In this document: one piece after another, positions 3,241-32,897 of the stretch
Layout: every line of letters starts with the position of its first letter
How positions within the stretch are numbered: position 1 is the first letter of the stretch
Virus record (IMG/VR): IMGVR_UViG_3300025084_001960
Span: 1 to 35,283 of that record
Source: a virus
Lineage: Duplodnaviria; Caudoviricetes
Reading direction: 5' to 3' (one strand)
Length of the DNA: 35,283 nt
Translations under genes and position numbers: made by a program
Notes under the pieces: generated by a model
Databases searched by the model: none
Seen by the model: the letters and a program-made list of their open reading frames with translations, nothing else
What the model was told of the DNA's origin: nothing

Positions 3241-3733
3241 AGAACAACTAGCAAACGAATATACTTGGGTTCATGAGAACACTACTACAATGAGTGGTAG
3301 AACAACTATAAAGAACAAAGAAAAAATACATGAGGTGATTAAAAAAGTAAATCCTTACAATGTATTAGACTACGGATGTGGTAAAGGTTGGCAGTATACA
3401 AGACAAGAAGTCCACAAAGAGTGGGGTATACCAATGCCAAAGCTTTATGACCCGTATATGAAGGAGTATGCAAAGTTACCGGGAGTTAGTTCAAAGTATT
3501 TTGATTTAGTACTCTGTGTAGATGTTATGGAACATATACTACCAGATGAAGTAGATTCAATACTACATGAAGTTTTCTTTTTAGGAAATTTCTGTTACTT
3601 TCATATAGATACTAAACCAGCAATCAAAACGTTTAGTGATGGTACTAATTTTCACGTTAGTATACATTCACAAGATTGGTGGATAAATAAACTAAATGAG
3701 TATGGAACGAATTACCACGCAGACTTCGACTAA
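3230..3733 (+). CDS. Class I SAM-dependent methyltransferase
   Basis: Motif I VLDYGCGKG, YDP, and FDLVLCVDVMEHI. GTG start overlaps the upstream stop. No DNA-MTase motif IV (DPPY/NPPY/PC) seen. Confidence 0.85.
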   Translation: MISKEQLANEYTWVHENTTTMSGRTTIKNKEKIHEVIKKVNPYNVLDYGCGKGWQYTRQEVHKEWGIPMPKLYDPYMKEYAKLPGVSSKYFDLVLCVDVMEHILPDEVDSILHEVFFLGNFCYFHIDTKPAIKTFSDGTNFHVSIHSQDWWINKLNEYGTNYHADFD

Positions 3734-3884
3734 AAAGACACACGAAGAACGACTAAAGATATGTCAAAAATGTCCAAACTATAGTAAGTTTTGGAAGACT
3801 TGTAAGATATGTCATTGTTTTATGCCCCTCAAAACTAAATTAAGATGGGCTGAGTGTCCAGACGAGCCACCTCGTTGGACTTAG
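3696..3884 (+). CDS. Small Cys-rich metal-binding protein (DUF6171-like)
   Basis: RLKICQKCP...CKICHCFMPLKTKL...CP...W: CxxC, CxxCxC and a terminal CP..W pattern. Confidence 0.7.
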   Translation: MSMERITTQTSTKKTHEERLKICQKCPNYSKFWKTCKICHCFMPLKTKLRWAECPDEPPRWT

Positions 3885-3893
3885 GAGAGAGAG

Positions 3894-4049
3894 ATGCCCA
3901 AAGGCAAAGGAACTTACGGCTCTAAAAGAGGCCGACCAAAGAAGAAAGGCGGAAAGAAGAAAAAGTCAATGGGAGGCTTAACAGCTGCCCAAAAGAAACT
4001 ACCTAAGAAACTACAACAAGCGATCTTAAAAAGAAAGCGCAAGAAGTAA
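3894..4049 (+). CDS. 51-aa very basic protein with an AT-hook motif (not in ORF track)
   Basis: SD AGGAG at about 3883; MPKGKGTYGSKRGRPKKKGGKKKKSMGGLTAAQKKLPKKLQQAILKRKRKK*. 22 of 51 residues are K/R, there is no D/E, and it contains KRGRPKK. Confidence 0.8.
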   Translation: MPKGKGTYGSKRGRPKKKGGKKKKSMGGLTAAQKKLPKKLQQAILKRKRKK

Positions 4050-4781
4050 CCTGAGGAGGTGATCAAAGTTTAGGACTGGATGACCTTATACTAAGCTAAA
4101 GAGCATGATATTATATCATGACACGGAAAAATATCGAGGGGTCTCCAGTCCGCCCTTAACTAAAATTATGCAGAAAACACCATACGAAATATCAAGAACA
4201 TACTACTACGATAATGCAGTCCCAAGGGATAGGGAAGTGCCTGTATACTATGGTCAGATATTTTCTAGAAAAGGCAACACTAGATTCTTCAAGAAAGATA
4301 CTTGGGAAAGACTAGAGAACGAAGGCAGAGATAACTTTGGAGTTATCGGATTACAACCCTTCTGTATCTGGGCAGATGCACACACAATTAGCGTTCAAGA
4401 TGAAGTAATTACGATCACTCGAGACGCAACTAATAGTGTACGAAAATTCCAATATGGATTAGATAAGTTTAATACTATCTGCGTTAAAAATTTAGAAGAA
4501 GCAAGAAAGTTAGAAAATAATAATGCTAACTTTGGAGGTTTATATTGTGTAGATTTTAGCACTAAAAACCTTTATAGATATACTGTAAAAATAGAAAATA
4601 AAACTAGACTCGAGAGGATCTTGAATACTTATGTAACTGGACTACCGTGGTTTTACAGCCATGGCGGTAAGGTAAATAAGCAATCAATTTGGCGTGGTAA
4701 ATTAAACACGTTAAATGATAACCCTGGTGGCCAAGGCTACTAGGACGCGTATACATCGCAAGGAGTACTTTTTAGTACGAT
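4050..4781 (+). ncRNA. Candidate large structured RNA (about 730 nt) overlapping the 212-aa ORF
   Basis: More than 10 stems found by eye, including nested long-range ones (4073-4087/4138-4151; 4220-4226/4301-4307; 4394-4401/4618-4625). Several contain G-U pairs that work on the + strand. No family recognised. Confidence 0.5.
4105..4743 (+). CDS. Hypothetical 212-aa protein
   Basis: A long ORF that is unlikely by chance in AT-rich DNA. However, there is no SD next to the ATG, the ATG lies within a hairpin, and no motif is recognised. Confidence 0.55.
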   Translation: MILYHDTEKYRGVSSPPLTKIMQKTPYEISRTYYYDNAVPRDREVPVYYGQIFSRKGNTRFFKKDTWERLENEGRDNFGVIGLQPFCIWADAHTISVQDEVITITRDATNSVRKFQYGLDKFNTICVKNLEEARKLENNNANFGGLYCVDFSTKNLYRYTVKIENKTRLERILNTYVTGLPWFYSHGGKVNKQSIWRGKLNTLNDNPGGQGY

Positions 4782-4792
4782 AGGAGATAAGT

Positions 4793-4969
4793 ATGTTAGG
4801 ATTCTTTGAATGGTTAACAGCTTGGATAGCAGTATTACCGACAGTGGTAATGATCTGTTCTCTAATAGCAGCTTTGACTCCAACCCCTATAGATGACGGT
4901 TGGATGAAGAAAGTCTACATGTTAGTAGACTGGTTTGCCTTAAATGTTGGTAAAGCTAAAGACAAATAA
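4793..4969 (+). CDS. 58-aa membrane protein (TPTPxDD...ALNVGKAK type; possibly holin-like; not in ORF track)
   Basis: SD AGGAG 4782-4786; MLGFFEWLTAWIAVLPTVVMICSLIAALTPTPIDDGWMKKVYMLVDWFALNVGKAKDK*. Confidence 0.8.
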   Translation: MLGFFEWLTAWIAVLPTVVMICSLIAALTPTPIDDGWMKKVYMLVDWFALNVGKAKDK

Positions 4970-4979
4970 CATTTCGGGG

Positions 4980-5007
4980 GTATAGTGGGCTGAAATGCCC
5001 ACTATGC
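4980..5007 (+). other. Intergenic 11-bp hairpin without a U-tract
   Basis: GTATAGTGGGC-TGAAAT-GCCCACTATGC, immediately before the SD GAGGAG of the next gene. Confidence 0.65.
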
Positions 5008-5021
5008 ATTGAGGAGATTCA

Positions 5022-5219
5022 ATGGCAAGAAAAAGAAAGAAGGCCGCTAAGAAGCGTCCAGTACCTACAAACCCTACTCTTTATGCTAGAGTAAAAGCAC
5101 AAGCAAAGAGAAAGTTTAAGGTATACCCATCAGCGTATGCTAATGGATGGCTAGTAAAAACTTACAAAGCCAAAGGCGGAAGGTATCGTATGGGTACTGG
5201 ACGTAAAAGAAGGAAGTAA
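5022..5219 (+). CDS. Highly basic protein (YPSAYANGWLVKTYK..GG.Y motif, DUF5872-like)
   Basis: SD GAGGAG, no acidic residues, K/R-rich termini. Family assignment is from recall. Confidence 0.8.
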   Translation: MARKRKKAAKKRPVPTNPTLYARVKAQAKRKFKVYPSAYANGWLVKTYKAKGGRYRMGTGRKRRK

Positions 5220-5506
5220 TGGCAAAACCTAAAGGTGGATTAACTAAATGGTTCAAAGAAGGATGGGTAGACATCTCTCGTAAGAGAAAAGGTGGCGGAC
5301 ATCCTCCGTGTGGAAGAAAATCTGCACGAAGCAAGGGAGGCTATCCCAAATGCGTACCAGCTAGTAAAGCCCGTAGAATGACTTCGGCGCAGAAACGATC
5401 TGCAGTAACACGCAAGAGGAGAGCAGGTAATCCTGGCGGCAAGCCAAGGAATGTATCTACTTTTGTAAAACGAAAAAGAAGAACAACTAAGAGAAGGAGA
5501 AAGTAA
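5219..5506 (+). CDS. Highly basic protein (GGLTKWFKEGWVD...CGR...YPKCVP motif)
   Basis: TAATG-coupled to the previous gene. K/R-rich with two Cys. Confidence 0.8.
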   Translation: MAKPKGGLTKWFKEGWVDISRKRKGGGHPPCGRKSARSKGGYPKCVPASKARRMTSAQKRSAVTRKRRAGNPGGKPRNVSTFVKRKRRTTKRRRK

Positions 5507-5507
5507 G

Positions 5508-5705
5508 ATGACCAATCGTGCACTTGACCAGAAGTTTGAAATGACGCAAAGGTTGGCACAGATTGAGATATCAGTAGCAGCTCTTATAATAAAGAGACGC
5601 AGAACACTTTCCAATCTAATAAAACTGAAAAACTACGCTACTATGAAGGAGTGTGATTTTCGAGATAAGCAATTGAAAAAGCTTATAGGAGACAAAAATG
5701 GCTAG
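5508..5705 (+). CDS. Hypothetical helical protein
   Basis: SD AAGGAG upstream; tightly packed in the operon. Confidence 0.65.
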   Translation: MTNRALDQKFEMTQRLAQIEISVAALIIKRRRTLSNLIKLKNYATMKECDFRDKQLKKLIGDKNG

Positions 5706-5967
5706 AACAGGATCATTTTTAAGCGGACCTACTGGTGTACACAACACTCAAAAGATTCGTAAACATAAATTAAAGAGAGGTGTCACTAGAGACATGAACT
5801 CAGCTGCAGGTGCTACTGTAAACAGTAAAAACCCTAACAGTATGGAAGCTCTCAGATATGCCGCAGGAGCTAAAGCAGTTGGACCAAGATTTGGTAAGAC
5901 TACTAAGCCTAAGCGAGCAAAATTTAGTAAGAAAGGAGCAGGTAAGATACTTCGTAAAAGGAGATAA
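5698..5967 (+). CDS. Highly basic hypothetical protein
   Basis: SD AGGAG, only two acidic residues in 89 aa. Confidence 0.8.
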   Translation: MARTGSFLSGPTGVHNTQKIRKHKLKRGVTRDMNSAAGATVNSKNPNSMEALRYAAGAKAVGPRFGKTTKPKRAKFSKKGAGKILRKRR

Positions 5968-5969
5968 TC

Positions 5970-6260
5970 ATGCCACGTAAGCGCGACCCTAGACTAAAAA
6001 GAGCAGGTGTAAGTGGATTCAATAAGCCCAAACGAACACCTGGCCATCGTACTAAGTCACACATTGTAGTGGCAAAAGTAGGAAACAAGATTAAAACTAT
6101 ACGTTTTGGACAGAAAGGAGCTAAGACAGCAGGGAAACCTAAAGCTGGAGAGTCTCGTAGAATGAAGATGAAACGTAAAAGTTTTAAAGCTAGACATAGA
6201 AAGAATATTGCCCGAGGCAAGATGTCAGCAGCTTATTGGGCAAATAAAGTTAAATGGTAA
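5970..6260 (+). CDS. Highly basic protein (IRFGQKG...FKARH...SAAYWANKVKW, DUF5754-like)
   Basis: SD AAGGAG; FG.G / F.ARH / YW...W pattern. Family assignment is from recall. Confidence 0.8.
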   Translation: MPRKRDPRLKRAGVSGFNKPKRTPGHRTKSHIVVAKVGNKIKTIRFGQKGAKTAGKPKAGESRRMKMKRKSFKARHRKNIARGKMSAAYWANKVKW

Positions 6261-7814: not shown

Positions 7815-7855
7815 CAAAAATAGTTCTTGACATGAGTTTAAATTTACGATATAAT
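7815..7855 (+). promoter_or_regulatory. Consensus sigma70 promoter for the head operon
   Basis: CAAAAATAGTTC, then TTGACA 7827-7832, 17-bp spacer, TATAAT 7850-7855. Confidence 0.9.
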
Positions 7856-7875
7856 TCTATTATACGAGTAGGTTT

Positions 7876-8247: not shown

Positions 8248-9442
8248 TAGATTTATAGGCAGAAACGACGAGGAGAAACTAAATCCTTCGCAGTATGTTA
8301 TATCTCGCGACCAAGGAATGACCATTGATAGTCGTGAAAATCCTACTAATTACAGACAAGCATACGAAACATTAGAAGTAGTAAACAGGTCAGTCAACAT
8401 GATAGTGGACGACGCAGCTGAAGTACCTTTTGATGTTGGAGAAAAAATACAGGGCATAAGTCCTATAAAGAAAGAAATAAGAAGAACTAGAGTAGACTTG
8501 TTATTAAACAAAGAACCTAATCCATTTCAAGACGTAAGCAGCTTTAAAAGAAATCTTTTGATAGACTTAATTATTGATGGTAATATCTTTGTATATTATG
8601 ATGGTAGACATCTTTACCATCTTCCAGCACAGCATGTAACTATTTATAGTGATGACAGTACTTATGTAGAAAAGTATGTTTATGATAACACTATAGAGTA
8701 CTCGCCTAGTGAGATAATTCATATTAAAGAAAACAGTTTTAATTCCATTTATAGAGGAGTACCGAGGCTCAAACCAGCTTTTAGAACTATGCAGTTACTA
8801 ACAAGCATGAGAAAGTTTCAGGATAACTTCTTTAAAAATGGCGCAGTACCAGGATTGGTACTAAAATCACCAAATACTCTTTCTGAAAAAATTAAAGAAA
8901 GAATGTTACAGGCTTGGGTTGCTAGATACAATCCACAGTCAGGTGGAAGGAGACCATTGTTCTTAGACGGTGGTTTAGAAGTGGAAAACTTAACAGAAGT
9001 TAGTTTTAAAGATTTAGATTTTCAAGAAGGCATTAGCAATAATGAAAAGATAATCTTAAAAGCGTTAGGTGTACCACCAATCTTAATGGATAGCGGTAAT
9101 AATGCTAACTTAAGACCAAACCACAGATTATATTACTTAGAAACCATACTTCCAATTACTAATAAAATTAAGTGTGCTTTCGAGAGATATTTCGGTTTCA
9201 AACTAGATGAAAATATTGCAGGTATTCCTGCTTTACAACCAGAGTTGAGAGACCAAGCAAGTTACTTTGCTACTCTTGTTAATTCTGGTATAATGACACC
9301 GAATGAAGCAAGGGAGGCATTAAGACTTGAAGAAATCACAGGATTTGATCAACCAAGAGTTCCTGCAAATATCGCAGGTTCAGCCTCAAATCCAGAAGAA
9401 GGTGGCAGACCGCAAGAGACCCCACCAAGCGAGGAAGAATAA
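8234..9442 (+). CDS. Portal protein (HK97/T5 pb7 family)
   Basis: LLNKEPNPFQ, DGNIF, EIIHIK, FFKNGAVPG, LGVPP, GIMTPNEAR motifs; 402 aa; follows terL. Confidence 0.95.
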   Translation: MAWYDRFIGRNDEEKLNPSQYVISRDQGMTIDSRENPTNYRQAYETLEVVNRSVNMIVDDAAEVPFDVGEKIQGISPIKKEIRRTRVDLLLNKEPNPFQDVSSFKRNLLIDLIIDGNIFVYYDGRHLYHLPAQHVTIYSDDSTYVEKYVYDNTIEYSPSEIIHIKENSFNSIYRGVPRLKPAFRTMQLLTSMRKFQDNFFKNGAVPGLVLKSPNTLSEKIKERMLQAWVARYNPQSGGRRPLFLDGGLEVENLTEVSFKDLDFQEGISNNEKIILKALGVPPILMDSGNNANLRPNHRLYYLETILPITNKIKCAFERYFGFKLDENIAGIPALQPELRDQASYFATLVNSGIMTPNEAREALRLEEITGFDQPRVPANIAGSASNPEEGGRPQETPPSEEE

Positions 9443-9444
9443 TT

Positions 9445-9726
9445 ATGACAAAAGACATGATGGTAAAGGCTTTATCCGATTTCATAGCCAGCAAAGGCGT
9501 TGAAAAAATGGATTTAGTAACATATAAAAGCTTCGGCAACGATGTACCAGTAAAAGACTTTATGCTTAGACGAGCATTTGGATCTTGGAATAGAGTATGT
9601 GCAGTTGTCAAGAAACGATATCCTGTCCAAGTAGTAGTAAAAGAAGCACCGAAAAAGGTAACACCTAAGAAAGTAGCTCCTAAGAAAGTAACTACTAAAA
9701 AGGAAGTTAAAGATGTCAAAAAGTAA
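9445..9726 (+). CDS. Small protein with an FGSWN (HNH-associated repeat-like) motif and a Lys/Pro-rich tail
   Basis: RRAFGSWN; C-terminus APKKVTPKKVAPKKVTTKK. Confidence 0.75.
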   Translation: MTKDMMVKALSDFIASKGVEKMDLVTYKSFGNDVPVKDFMLRRAFGSWNRVCAVVKKRYPVQVVVKEAPKKVTPKKVAPKKVTTKKEVKDVKK

Positions 9727-11767
9727 CGAAAAGATATATCAATGGACTAGCACTTTTAAATCATTAGGTGAAACTGATGATGGTGGAATTAATATTAAAG
9801 GTTCTGCAAGTACAAATGGACTAGATAGAGCTGGTGATATTATCGAAAGCGAAGCGTGGATGAAAGGTGGATTGGAAAACTTTAAAGGTAATCCAATTAT
9901 TCTTTTTAACCATGACTATAATAAACCAATTGGTAGAGCCACTGGTTTAGAAGTGACCGATAAAGGCTTAGAAATATCTGCAAAGATATCAAAAGCAGCA
10001 GGTGATATAACCCAATTAGTTAAAGATGGTGTTCTCGGAGCATTTTCAGTAGGATTCAGATGTAAAGACTCTGAGTATATGACTGATACCGATGGGTACA
10101 AAATAAAAGACGCGGAACTATTTGAAGTGTCTGTAGTGTCAGTGCCTTGCAACCAAGGGGCAACCTTTGGATTAGCAAAGTCATTTGATAGTATGGAACA
10201 GTACAGAGAGTACCAAAAACAAATTTTACAGGCTAACTCAACCGCAGCAGCAGACGCTGTTAAAATTGAGCAGCCAAGCGAGGAGAAATCCTCATCAACG
10301 GAGACTGATATGTCAGAAGAAAGAAAATCTCCTGAAACTTCAATCGACCTTGAAGCATTTGCAAAAAAAGTAGCAGAAGATACTGCGACTAAGATTGCAA
10401 TGAAGCAAGCCGAAGCGAAGGCAGCAGAAGTAAAAGCAAATGAAGAAGCGGCTGAAAAGCAAGCATCTGAAGAAGCTACACAAAAAGCTGCTCAAGAAGC
10501 GAAGGAAATGGAAACAAAAACTATAGTGGAAGCTGGTTTGACAGGAGCTGAAAAGCTAATGAACGATCTAGAAGCTAGAGTTAACGAAAAAAATGAAGAC
10601 TTGAAAACAGTAGTCGACAGCCTAGAAAAACAACTAGCAGAAAAATCAGAGGAAATCATGAGCATTCGTGAGTCCAAAAGAACTTTTGCTAAAGGTAACG
10701 GCGGCGACTGGAAGAAAGACTTTGAAAACGACATCATTGATGCAAAATTTGCTGGTTTAGCTACTGGTAAAGGATGGAACAATGATTATGCACAAGGTGT
10801 GATGAAAGCAGTGAACGCTCACTCAGGTACTGAAGTATCATCAGCAGACTTTGAACAAATCGTTTCAACAAACATAGAAAGAGATATTCAAAATGAATTA
10901 GTCTTAGCACCTCTATTTAGAGAAATCGCTATGACTTCTGCTAACATGATTATCCCAATCTTACCAGACGCTGGTTATGCTGAATTTGCTTCAGCTCAAA
11001 CAGCATCAGGTTCATCACCACACGGTAACTTAGACCCAAGAGGCAACGCCCTAGGATCACCGTATACTGGTGTTAATTTGACTGAAAGAACTTTAAACAC
11101 AGTCAAGCTTATTTCACAATCATACTTAGGTAATGAAACTGAAGAAGATGCAATCTTACCGATTCTTCCTTTAATTAGAGAGTCTATGGTTAGATCACAT
11201 GCAAGAAGTATCGAAAATGCTATCTTAGCTGGTAACAGCTCAACAGACGGTGTTTATGGTTCAGGCGCATTTGAAGGTCTACTTACAGCATCCGCTGGAG
11301 ATTCAGACTTCACTCAGCCTACAGGAACATTTGCAGCAAGTGATGTTGTAGAAGCTTCAGACTTACTTGGAATGAGAAAGAACATGGGCAAATATGGAAT
11401 CAATCCTTCAGAAGTTGTATATATCGTATCGCAAGATGTGTATTATAACTTACTAGAAGATGCTGAATTCCAAGACGCTAACCTAGTTGGCGACATGGCT
11501 ACTAAGCTAAATGGTGAAATTGGACAAGTATTTGGATCAAGAGTAATCATGTGTGATGAATTTGCTACTAAAGCAGCTGGCAAATTTGGTGCTATAGCAG
11601 TATACCCAAGAAACTATGTAATGCCTAGATTAAGAGGTGTTACAATTGAATCAGACTACGAAGTAGCTAATCAAAGAAGAGTCCTAGTGGCTTCTCAGAG
11701 ATTAGGATTCACTGACTTAATTGACGGTGCAACTTCTAAGTGGGGATTAAAATACAAAGCTAGTTAA
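9713..11767 (+). CDS. Fused prohead protease - scaffold (delta) domain - HK97-fold major capsid protein
   Basis: N-terminal HK97-type protease (IKGSAS, DRAGD, ILFNHD..PIG, FSVGF, LFEVSVVSVPCN), a coiled-coil linker, and a C-terminal capsid region (ETEEDAILPILPLIRESMVRSHAR, GEIGQVFG, VLVASQR). No internal stop. Confidence 0.93.
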   Translation: MSKSNEKIYQWTSTFKSLGETDDGGINIKGSASTNGLDRAGDIIESEAWMKGGLENFKGNPIILFNHDYNKPIGRATGLEVTDKGLEISAKISKAAGDITQLVKDGVLGAFSVGFRCKDSEYMTDTDGYKIKDAELFEVSVVSVPCNQGATFGLAKSFDSMEQYREYQKQILQANSTAAADAVKIEQPSEEKSSSTETDMSEERKSPETSIDLEAFAKKVAEDTATKIAMKQAEAKAAEVKANEEAAEKQASEEATQKAAQEAKEMETKTIVEAGLTGAEKLMNDLEARVNEKNEDLKTVVDSLEKQLAEKSEEIMSIRESKRTFAKGNGGDWKKDFENDIIDAKFAGLATGKGWNNDYAQGVMKAVNAHSGTEVSSADFEQIVSTNIERDIQNELVLAPLFREIAMTSANMIIPILPDAGYAEFASAQTASGSSPHGNLDPRGNALGSPYTGVNLTERTLNTVKLISQSYLGNETEEDAILPILPLIRESMVRSHARSIENAILAGNSSTDGVYGSGAFEGLLTASAGDSDFTQPTGTFAASDVVEASDLLGMRKNMGKYGINPSEVVYIVSQDVYYNLLEDAEFQDANLVGDMATKLNGEIGQVFGSRVIMCDEFATKAAGKFGAIAVYPRNYVMPRLRGVTIESDYEVANQRRVLVASQRLGFTDLIDGATSKWGLKYKAS
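10280..10312 (+). promoter_or_regulatory. Internal translation start for scaffold-capsid protein (GNRA hairpin, SD, ATG Met200)
   Basis: GAGGA-GAAA-TCCTC hairpin 10280-10293, GGAG 10300-10303, in-frame ATG 10310. Confidence 0.65.
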
Positions 11768-32856: not shown

Positions 32857-32897
32857 CAAAAATAGTTCTTGACACCACCTCATATTTTTGATATAAT
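32857..32897 (+). promoter_or_regulatory. Consensus sigma70 promoter for the side-fibre module
   Basis: CAAAAATAGTTC, then TTGACA 32869-32874, 17-bp spacer with TG 32889-32890, TATAAT 32892-32897. Confidence 0.9.

Follow-up and report, generated by a model that had tools for sequence, protein, structure and literature searches.

The question raised by this locus is what is encoded, and what is folded, between positions 4050 and 4781 of a virus record of 35,283 nucleotides (the whole record is called the window below). The initial annotation took this stretch for a new multi-domain non-coding RNA of about 730 nt, or a dual coding/structural RNA, lying across a 212-aa open reading frame. Our answer is that a new structured RNA very probably does exist, but its size is about 90–105 nt and it is placed before the gene rather than under it.

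The window (35 kb) carries terminase, portal and protease-capsid genes together with T5-type neck and tail genes. Its terminase is 46–48% identical to those of the 109–122 kb Serratia, Vibrio and Providencia phages, which we take to be T5-like. A complete relative, G001 (105 kb, with direct terminal repeats), encodes the ribosomal protein bS21; no tRNA and no Rfam family match was found in this genome, and ARAGORN reported neither tRNA nor tmRNA. The bS21 matches and the SD type point to a proteobacterial host. The G001 bS21 gene (L543 2026–2256) is of the proteobacterial type and is located beside Hsp20 and lysozyme genes; CsgG, FecR, IscA/NifU and cytochrome c are also encoded there.

The gene block containing the stretch under study is headed by a phage-encoded CHASE2 adenylate/guanylate cyclase gene (823–2607). 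Near-consensus sigma70 promoters with a common AAAATAGTTCTTGACA-like upstream part are found at 2611–2639, about 7830–7856 and about 32870–32897. Very basic genes of 50–96 aa (DUF5872-like and others) are clustered before the terminase at 3894–6260, their order being shuffled among relatives. The slot itself is marked upstream by a six-cysteine DUF6171-like gene (3696–3884, + strand; Pfam DUF6171 E 3e-4, below the cut-off), which is present upstream in loci carrying the element. It is followed by a gene for a 51-aa basic protein (3894–4049, + strand), one of several interchangeable upstream genes, which ends directly before the leader described below. The downstream end of the slot is a gene for a 58-aa hydrophobic protein (4793–4969, + strand; phrog_9685, family F6 in our gene maps). 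The spacer before it (4745–4792) is conserved and holds a GTACT/AGTAC hairpin with a variable 4-nt loop, kept in 11 of 23 homologous loci, its folding z being just −0.78. A strong intergenic hairpin (4970–5021, z −5.25) precedes the SD of the next, 65-aa basic gene.

The stems proposed by the initial annotation can all be located in the sequence, most of them also appear in the minimum free energy (MFE) structure, and 4050–4781 as a whole folds better than its dinucleotide shuffles (z −4.63, 0 of 20). The supposed special density of stems did not hold up. Against synonymous-codon shuffles the coding part reaches z −3.3, a value equalled or surpassed by four of 18 equally long control segments from genes (portal −7.2, protease-capsid −6.0 and −3.8, terminase −3.6); 200-nt windows with z below −4 are found elsewhere in the first 12 kb, too. 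The 3′ half of the portal gene (8810–9385) and the 5′ part of the protease-capsid gene (9713–10864), from which the values −7.2, −6.0 and −3.8 come, fold more strongly against codon shuffles than the 4050–4781 region.

Evolutionary comparison indicates that 4168–4743 (+ strand) is a protein-coding gene of 191 aa belonging to a phage family without annotation (F14). Compared with 22 homologues, its dN/dS is 0.14–0.54 and the changes fall mainly on third codon positions. The frame starting at 4168 is kept in 23 of 23 full-length copies (185–216 aa, selected as open frames), and the family alignment extends down to 18% identity, with further members found by protein search. The gene had been read as 212 aa from 4105. 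In close relatives 4050–4165 is nearly invariant, yet insertions of +1 or +2 nt occur just before the ATG at 4168, and in database proteins, as in gene predictions, the leader is translated in two different frames. By this comparison translation begins at 4168; the starts given in databases as “212-aa” and “MTRKN...” are shadows of the leader RNA. The absence of an adjacent SD, noted earlier for the longer frame, was confirmed for this gene.

The stems lying under the gene do not persist. We scored 12 of them in the 22 homologues, with registers fixed and hairpin 4723–4744 left out; they were paired in 36–80% of cases, a few unpaired positions included in two hairpins lowering the figures of those two. 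The best kept, CTCGAG, was 79.5% paired with zero compensatory changes. Over 4168–4743, then, the protein is conserved among homologues and the stems are disrupted. Since the gene is real by dN/dS and its internal stems are not kept, we reject a 730-nt RNA; the folding energies given above are what speaks for it, while strong selection at the protein level, equally well folding control segments and the occurrence of the leader before unrelated genes make it very improbable. GOLLD and ROOL are large, ornate, phage-borne structured RNAs of 600–800 nt with unknown function. The leader differs from them in its size of ~90 nt and the lack of an Rfam match, and the rest of the stretch is coding. At E≤1 the window matches no Rfam family, so that neither an RNA of this type nor a dual coding/structural RNA over the gene is supported.

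The part of the initial proposal that was fully borne out by covariation is its first element, a stem formed by 4073–4087 and 4138–4151 which encloses the hairpin 4104–4120. We interpret it as the core of a conserved folded leader RNA at 4053–4157 (+ strand throughout). The leader begins with an extended SD-like 12-mer, GAGGAGGTGATC (4053–4064), complementary to the 3′ end of 16S rRNA; no start codon follows it, and it is located 13 nt before the stem P1. The 5′ arm of P1 (4073–4087) consists of 8 bp, a bulged U4081 and 6 bp, and pairs with the 3′ arm at 4138–4151. The arms enclose a large bubble. Its 5′ strand (16 nt, 4088–4103) contains a near-invariant AUACUAA followed by a possible 2-bp GC/GC hairpin, while its 3′ strand (17 nt, 4121–4137) includes the invariant ACACGG, both as judged from the alignment columns. 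Between the two strands lies hairpin P3 (4104–4120), CAUGA/UCAUG with an AU-rich variable loop, and the alignment shows a conserved pyrimidine tail, GCCCUU (4152–4157), behind P1.

Among the 43 aligned variants, 97.8% of cells in the 14-bp P1 are paired and eight of the 14 pairs have changed on both sides; at six pairs at least three pair types or a clear GC/AU exchange are seen. P3 is 96.5% paired, with an A-U/U-A exchange at one pair, and its closing C-G is replaced by U-A in the distant member L626. The GC/GC helix of the bubble is 93% paired without double changes. Over the whole structure nine pairs have a double change; these counts refer to sequences and not to events. The fold score was reached by none of 500 shuffles, and slid registers were only 37–58% paired. 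In P1, U-G wobbles are exchanged for U-A or A-U, which favours the + strand, as had been suggested from the G-U pairs. ACACGG is invariant in 43 of 43 variants, which is partly an effect of the search patterns, and it recurs in L626; in this member, detected through its protein alone and without RNA patterns, the bubble invariance is almost fully kept. The leader core remains 0.86–1.0 identical in close and mid-range relatives, in which the adjoining gene is near silent-site saturation (dS up to 1.8), and 0.75–0.83 identical in the three most distant relatives. The upstream SD could pair with the 3′ tail, but no covariation was detected between them over 33 distinct pairs (p 0.91), and no alternative leader fold with covariation was found.

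The signals for ribosome binding around the leader are unusual. GGAGGTG occurs once in the window, ordinary genes of which use AGGAG, and GGAGGTGAT is unique in the 105-kb G001, where it is located at the leader element. The computed duplex with the 16S 3′ end is −22.5 kcal/mol for the upstream site vs. −7.3 kcal/mol for an ordinary AGGAG site. GGRGGTGR is present in 56 of the 72 scorable contexts (77 contexts in all). The upstream site alone is found in 32 of these 72, both the upstream site and an own SD of the next gene in 24, an own SD alone in 16, and neither in none. The Fisher p of 2e-5 overstates this contrast because few lineages are involved: nearly all cases without an own SD belong to one protein family, and SD loss is largely restricted to one small-gene family, so the pattern is suggestive only. 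By eye, no own SD was seen near the starts of the 191-aa family within the printed 30-nt upstream stretches, and no small ORF with a common frame or a standard start was seen behind the upstream SD. In contexts lacking the upstream site, an upstream gene usually ends with a TAG stop at the P1 foot (mostly at position −7).

The start codon follows P1 at a distance of 13–22 nt in 51 of 51 SD-bearing variants. In the window the SD and the AUG are 108 nt apart, and extra pairs in the window MFE bury parts of both. With P1 closed, 26–33 unpaired nucleotides (37–45 in six variants) separate SD and AUG. In the split ribosome binding sites of T4 genes 25 and 38 (PMC3014915), a small hairpin shortens spacings of 27 and 22 nt to 11 and 5 nt, respectively. 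The leader resembles these sites in that a conserved RNA structure separates the SD from a start codon which has no adjacent SD. It differs in having 108 nt between SD and AUG and invariant loop bases, and since the 26–33 unpaired nucleotides are far above the 5–11 nt of the T4 genes, too many for their mechanism, a direct alignment of SD and AUG is not accounted for.

The leader is widespread in viral sequences. A 19-base leader pattern matched 47 viral loci, including loci with unrelated genes downstream, and further scans gave 47 distinct cores, of which 43 were aligned and four slightly differing ones left out. Loose patterns mostly returned chance matches and were filtered with a stricter pattern and a profile. 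The genes behind the leader form five clusters: the 191-aa family, a 42–64 aa dockerin-like peptide, a GT8 glycosyltransferase, a methyltransferase and a 48-aa peptide. G001 contains one copy of the leader, and G002 (104 kb) has one strong match and one weak one (16.4 bits, E 0.075; G002:C1:97125–97217, L628). The leader was not found in cellular genomes, where 10 of 10 pattern matches were attributable to chance, as were both matches in annotated phage records; the best Rfam matches to 4030–4200 (E 3.7 and 7.8) were far under the gathering scores. Contigs covering the leader are present in four metatranscriptome sets; such contigs are silent on RNA ends, strand and level, and the gene gaps in them may be strain variation. 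PeSL cassettes of T4-type phages are repeated units of a sigma70 promoter and a stem-loop, and the leader, with its single copy and without a −35 box, differs from them. The motif has no curated family, and we did not find it described in the literature; it is absent from the part searched of PMC10690425, the most extensive catalogue of candidate phage RNAs, the remaining part of which may list it.

The distribution of the 191-aa family is nested inside that of the RNA. Selection on either partner was avoided by fetching loci via the upstream DUF6171-like gene, the best 80 of 489 being used. Both RNA and protein were present in 19 of these 80 loci, RNA only in 7, protein only in 0 and neither in 54. 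In other words, the RNA model had 26 strong matches in the best 80 of 489 loci, and the protein accompanied 19 of the 26 and 0 of the 54 others; the best 80 include many near-duplicates. Over all the loci examined, 61 of 63 distinct protein-hit rows, most of which originate from RNA-pattern searches, have the RNA 21–778 nt upstream, and the other two have no upstream DNA. Conversely, of the 67 RNA contexts with enough DNA, 50 carry the protein and 17 do not, so the protein is not required for retention of the RNA. A blind test was provided by P0046, a distant member detected through its protein alone: its RNA was located 88 nt upstream (58.4 bits, E 8e-15), the upstream SD was present, and one further compensatory pair was seen. 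Part of this co-occurrence could be due to close linkage. It outlasts insertions and a divergence of the protein to about 25% identity.

The predicted structure of the 191-aa protein is mostly beta (pLDDT 77). The protein matched no Pfam, PHROG or PADLOC family, a sequence search against PDB gave nothing better than E≥0.7, and its Atlas matches were under 0.8. Foldseek gave E≥0.03 and no clear fold match, and the best VIA match (Z 3.3, the N-terminal beta domain of Cas1 over ~73 residues) is too weak to use, so that no recognisable RNA-binding fold was found (best Z 3.3). The family has an invariant C-terminal GY-stop (4732–4743 in the window; also L026, L032 and L085). This invariance likely comes from an overlap with the start of the small basic gene that follows (MATKKW..., family F18), which is absent from the window.

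We propose, with a probability of about 0.4, that the leader is a translational control element, possibly bound by the 191-aa protein. The 30S subunit would bind the strong upstream site, and ribosomes would be loaded there for the SD-less 191-aa gene. The stem, bubble and hairpin would form a protein-binding switch with the protein sitting on the conserved bubble, and the partner may be the 191-aa protein itself, as suggested by the co-occurrence, making the control autoregulatory. Genes inserted behind the leader would hand the control on to the 191-aa gene via translational coupling. Several points speak against this model: the upstream site is kept in the 24 contexts in which an own SD precedes the next gene, the unpaired stretch between SD and AUG is long, 17 of 67 contexts lack the protein, and the protein has no recognisable RNA-binding fold. 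The autogenous translational operators of T4 genes 32 and 43 (PMC3014915 for gene 43) share with the leader a structured RNA placed just before a start codon (13–22 nt here) and a product that may bind it. Here the binding is putative and deduced from co-occurrence, the protein has no known fold, and the leader also serves unrelated inserted genes. Two further ideas concern its partners: the invariant CACGGA may contain a putative CsrA-type GGA site, and, as a conjecture, the leader may be linked to the bS21 encoded by the phage.

Another reading, which we consider unlikely, is that the RNA acts in trans or as an RNP with the 191-aa protein, for instance as an antitoxin-like nuclease inhibitor or a decoy, after processing from a late transcript. 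The protein is never seen without the RNA where upstream DNA is available, while the RNA is sometimes alone, an asymmetry like that of toxin-antitoxin systems; other genes can be inserted between the RNA and the protein gene (21–778 nt), and a specific partner is suggested by the bases that are unpaired yet invariant. The type III systems toxIN, cptIN and tenpIN (PMC12283969) likewise have an RNA upstream of a gene of 150–200 aa which is not seen alone. They differ from the leader, in which no repeats, pseudoknot or terminator were found, and ToxN, CptN and TenpN were not among the matches listed for our protein. The leader is single-copy without tandem repeats, there is no terminator-like site between it and the gene (4150–4168), no pseudoknot was found by eye (consensus folding cannot predict one), and no ToxN/HEPN-type family or fold appeared among the protein matches; moreover, action in trans would leave the fixed distance to the start codon and the upstream SD unexplained. 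The leader might also work like a STAB-SD, a parked ribosome and the stem protecting late mRNA or marking a processing site and the neighbouring gene being incidental. In the STAB-SD of Bacillus thuringiensis cryIIIA (PMC3997798), too, the 5′ leader contains a strong SD that no start codon follows, and where the upstream SD is missing, the usual stop of an upstream gene at the TAG at the P1 foot would put a ribosome at the same spot. However, STAB-SD is described for Bacilli and includes no large conserved fold, and our leader is operon-internal. According to PMC3997798, such protection at a distance is much more effective in Bacilli than in E. coli, and the likely host here is a proteobacterium. 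The invariant bubble and the protein link are also left unexplained, and we regard this reading as quite improbable.

We give equally little credence to an undescribed class of small-molecule riboswitch or self-cleaving ribozyme. Invariant junction bases in a covarying frame 5′ of start codons would fit either, but the downstream genes (GT8 glycosyltransferase, methyltransferase, dockerin-like peptide and products without assigned function) share no common metabolism, and the chance-only matches in cellular genomes, the lack of a covarying alternative fold and the absence of Rfam matches better than E 3.7 argue against both. The bubble could also mimic or hold a promoter −10 element, as in a 6S-like RNA polymerase decoy or an in-hairpin promoter like those of T4 genes e and soc. 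The hexamer at 4087–4092 varies among TATACT, TATAAT, TACACT and AATACT with positions 2 and 6 fixed, its first base belongs to the last P1 pair, and a bubble of 16×17 nt lies between two helices. There is, however, no −35 box, while the promoters of the phage are of the form TTGACA-17-TATAAT; the computed accessibility of the start region is equal with and without the 5′ arm (0.62 vs. 0.60, 59 variants), and the arms of 6S RNA are much longer than those of the leader. This reading seems to us a little less credible still. A minus-strand promoter-like site at 4137–4110 falls in the variable loop and was taken as chance.

Besides the translational control proposed above, the origin of the leader deserves attention. 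Three weak matches to the RNA model (17 bits, E 0.22; L597, L599 and L614, all of one lineage) are located within an intact WSHP-family gene; in other phages this family is the upstream neighbour of the element. In L597 (1752–1859) this diverged gene has GGAGGTGATC, outside the model, followed at a distance of 13 nt by a 15-bp stem that shares the bulge of P1 and by a similar tail, and the element-like fold has z −3.7. Compared with shuffled controls, gene segments of the L597 sub-type are more similar to the element in 30 of 42 pairings (p≤0.05), while the WSHP sub-type located beside the stand-alone element does so in just 2 of 42. All four lineages with W-E-V-I spell it GAG GTG ATY, though in the window GAG makes up 20% of the codons for Glu and GTG 7% of those for Val. 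When L597 was left out, no signal came from a profile of all gene segments; the likeness is thus modest, and the descent may have run in either direction. A similarity of the WSHP gene to DUF1415 received no Pfam support. We tentatively suggest, while holding it for rather doubtful, that a new RNA-protein module arose here: a protein of unmatched fold and a 90-nt RNA born from the neighbouring gene, in which the W-E-V-I codons became the strong ribosome binding site and the D-D-L and W-S-H-P codons the outer stem, relatives such as L597 still keeping the fold within the intact gene. If this were true, it would be a traceable case of a regulatory RNA derived from a protein gene with the intermediates in hand.

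For the annotation of these phages, the immediate correction is that the start of the 191-aa gene moves to 4168. With its pairs defined for mutation and a candidate protein as partner, the leader has a function that is testable in reporter and binding assays. Overall, the leader adds a well-supported RNA motif without a curated family to widespread uncultured marine T5-like phages.
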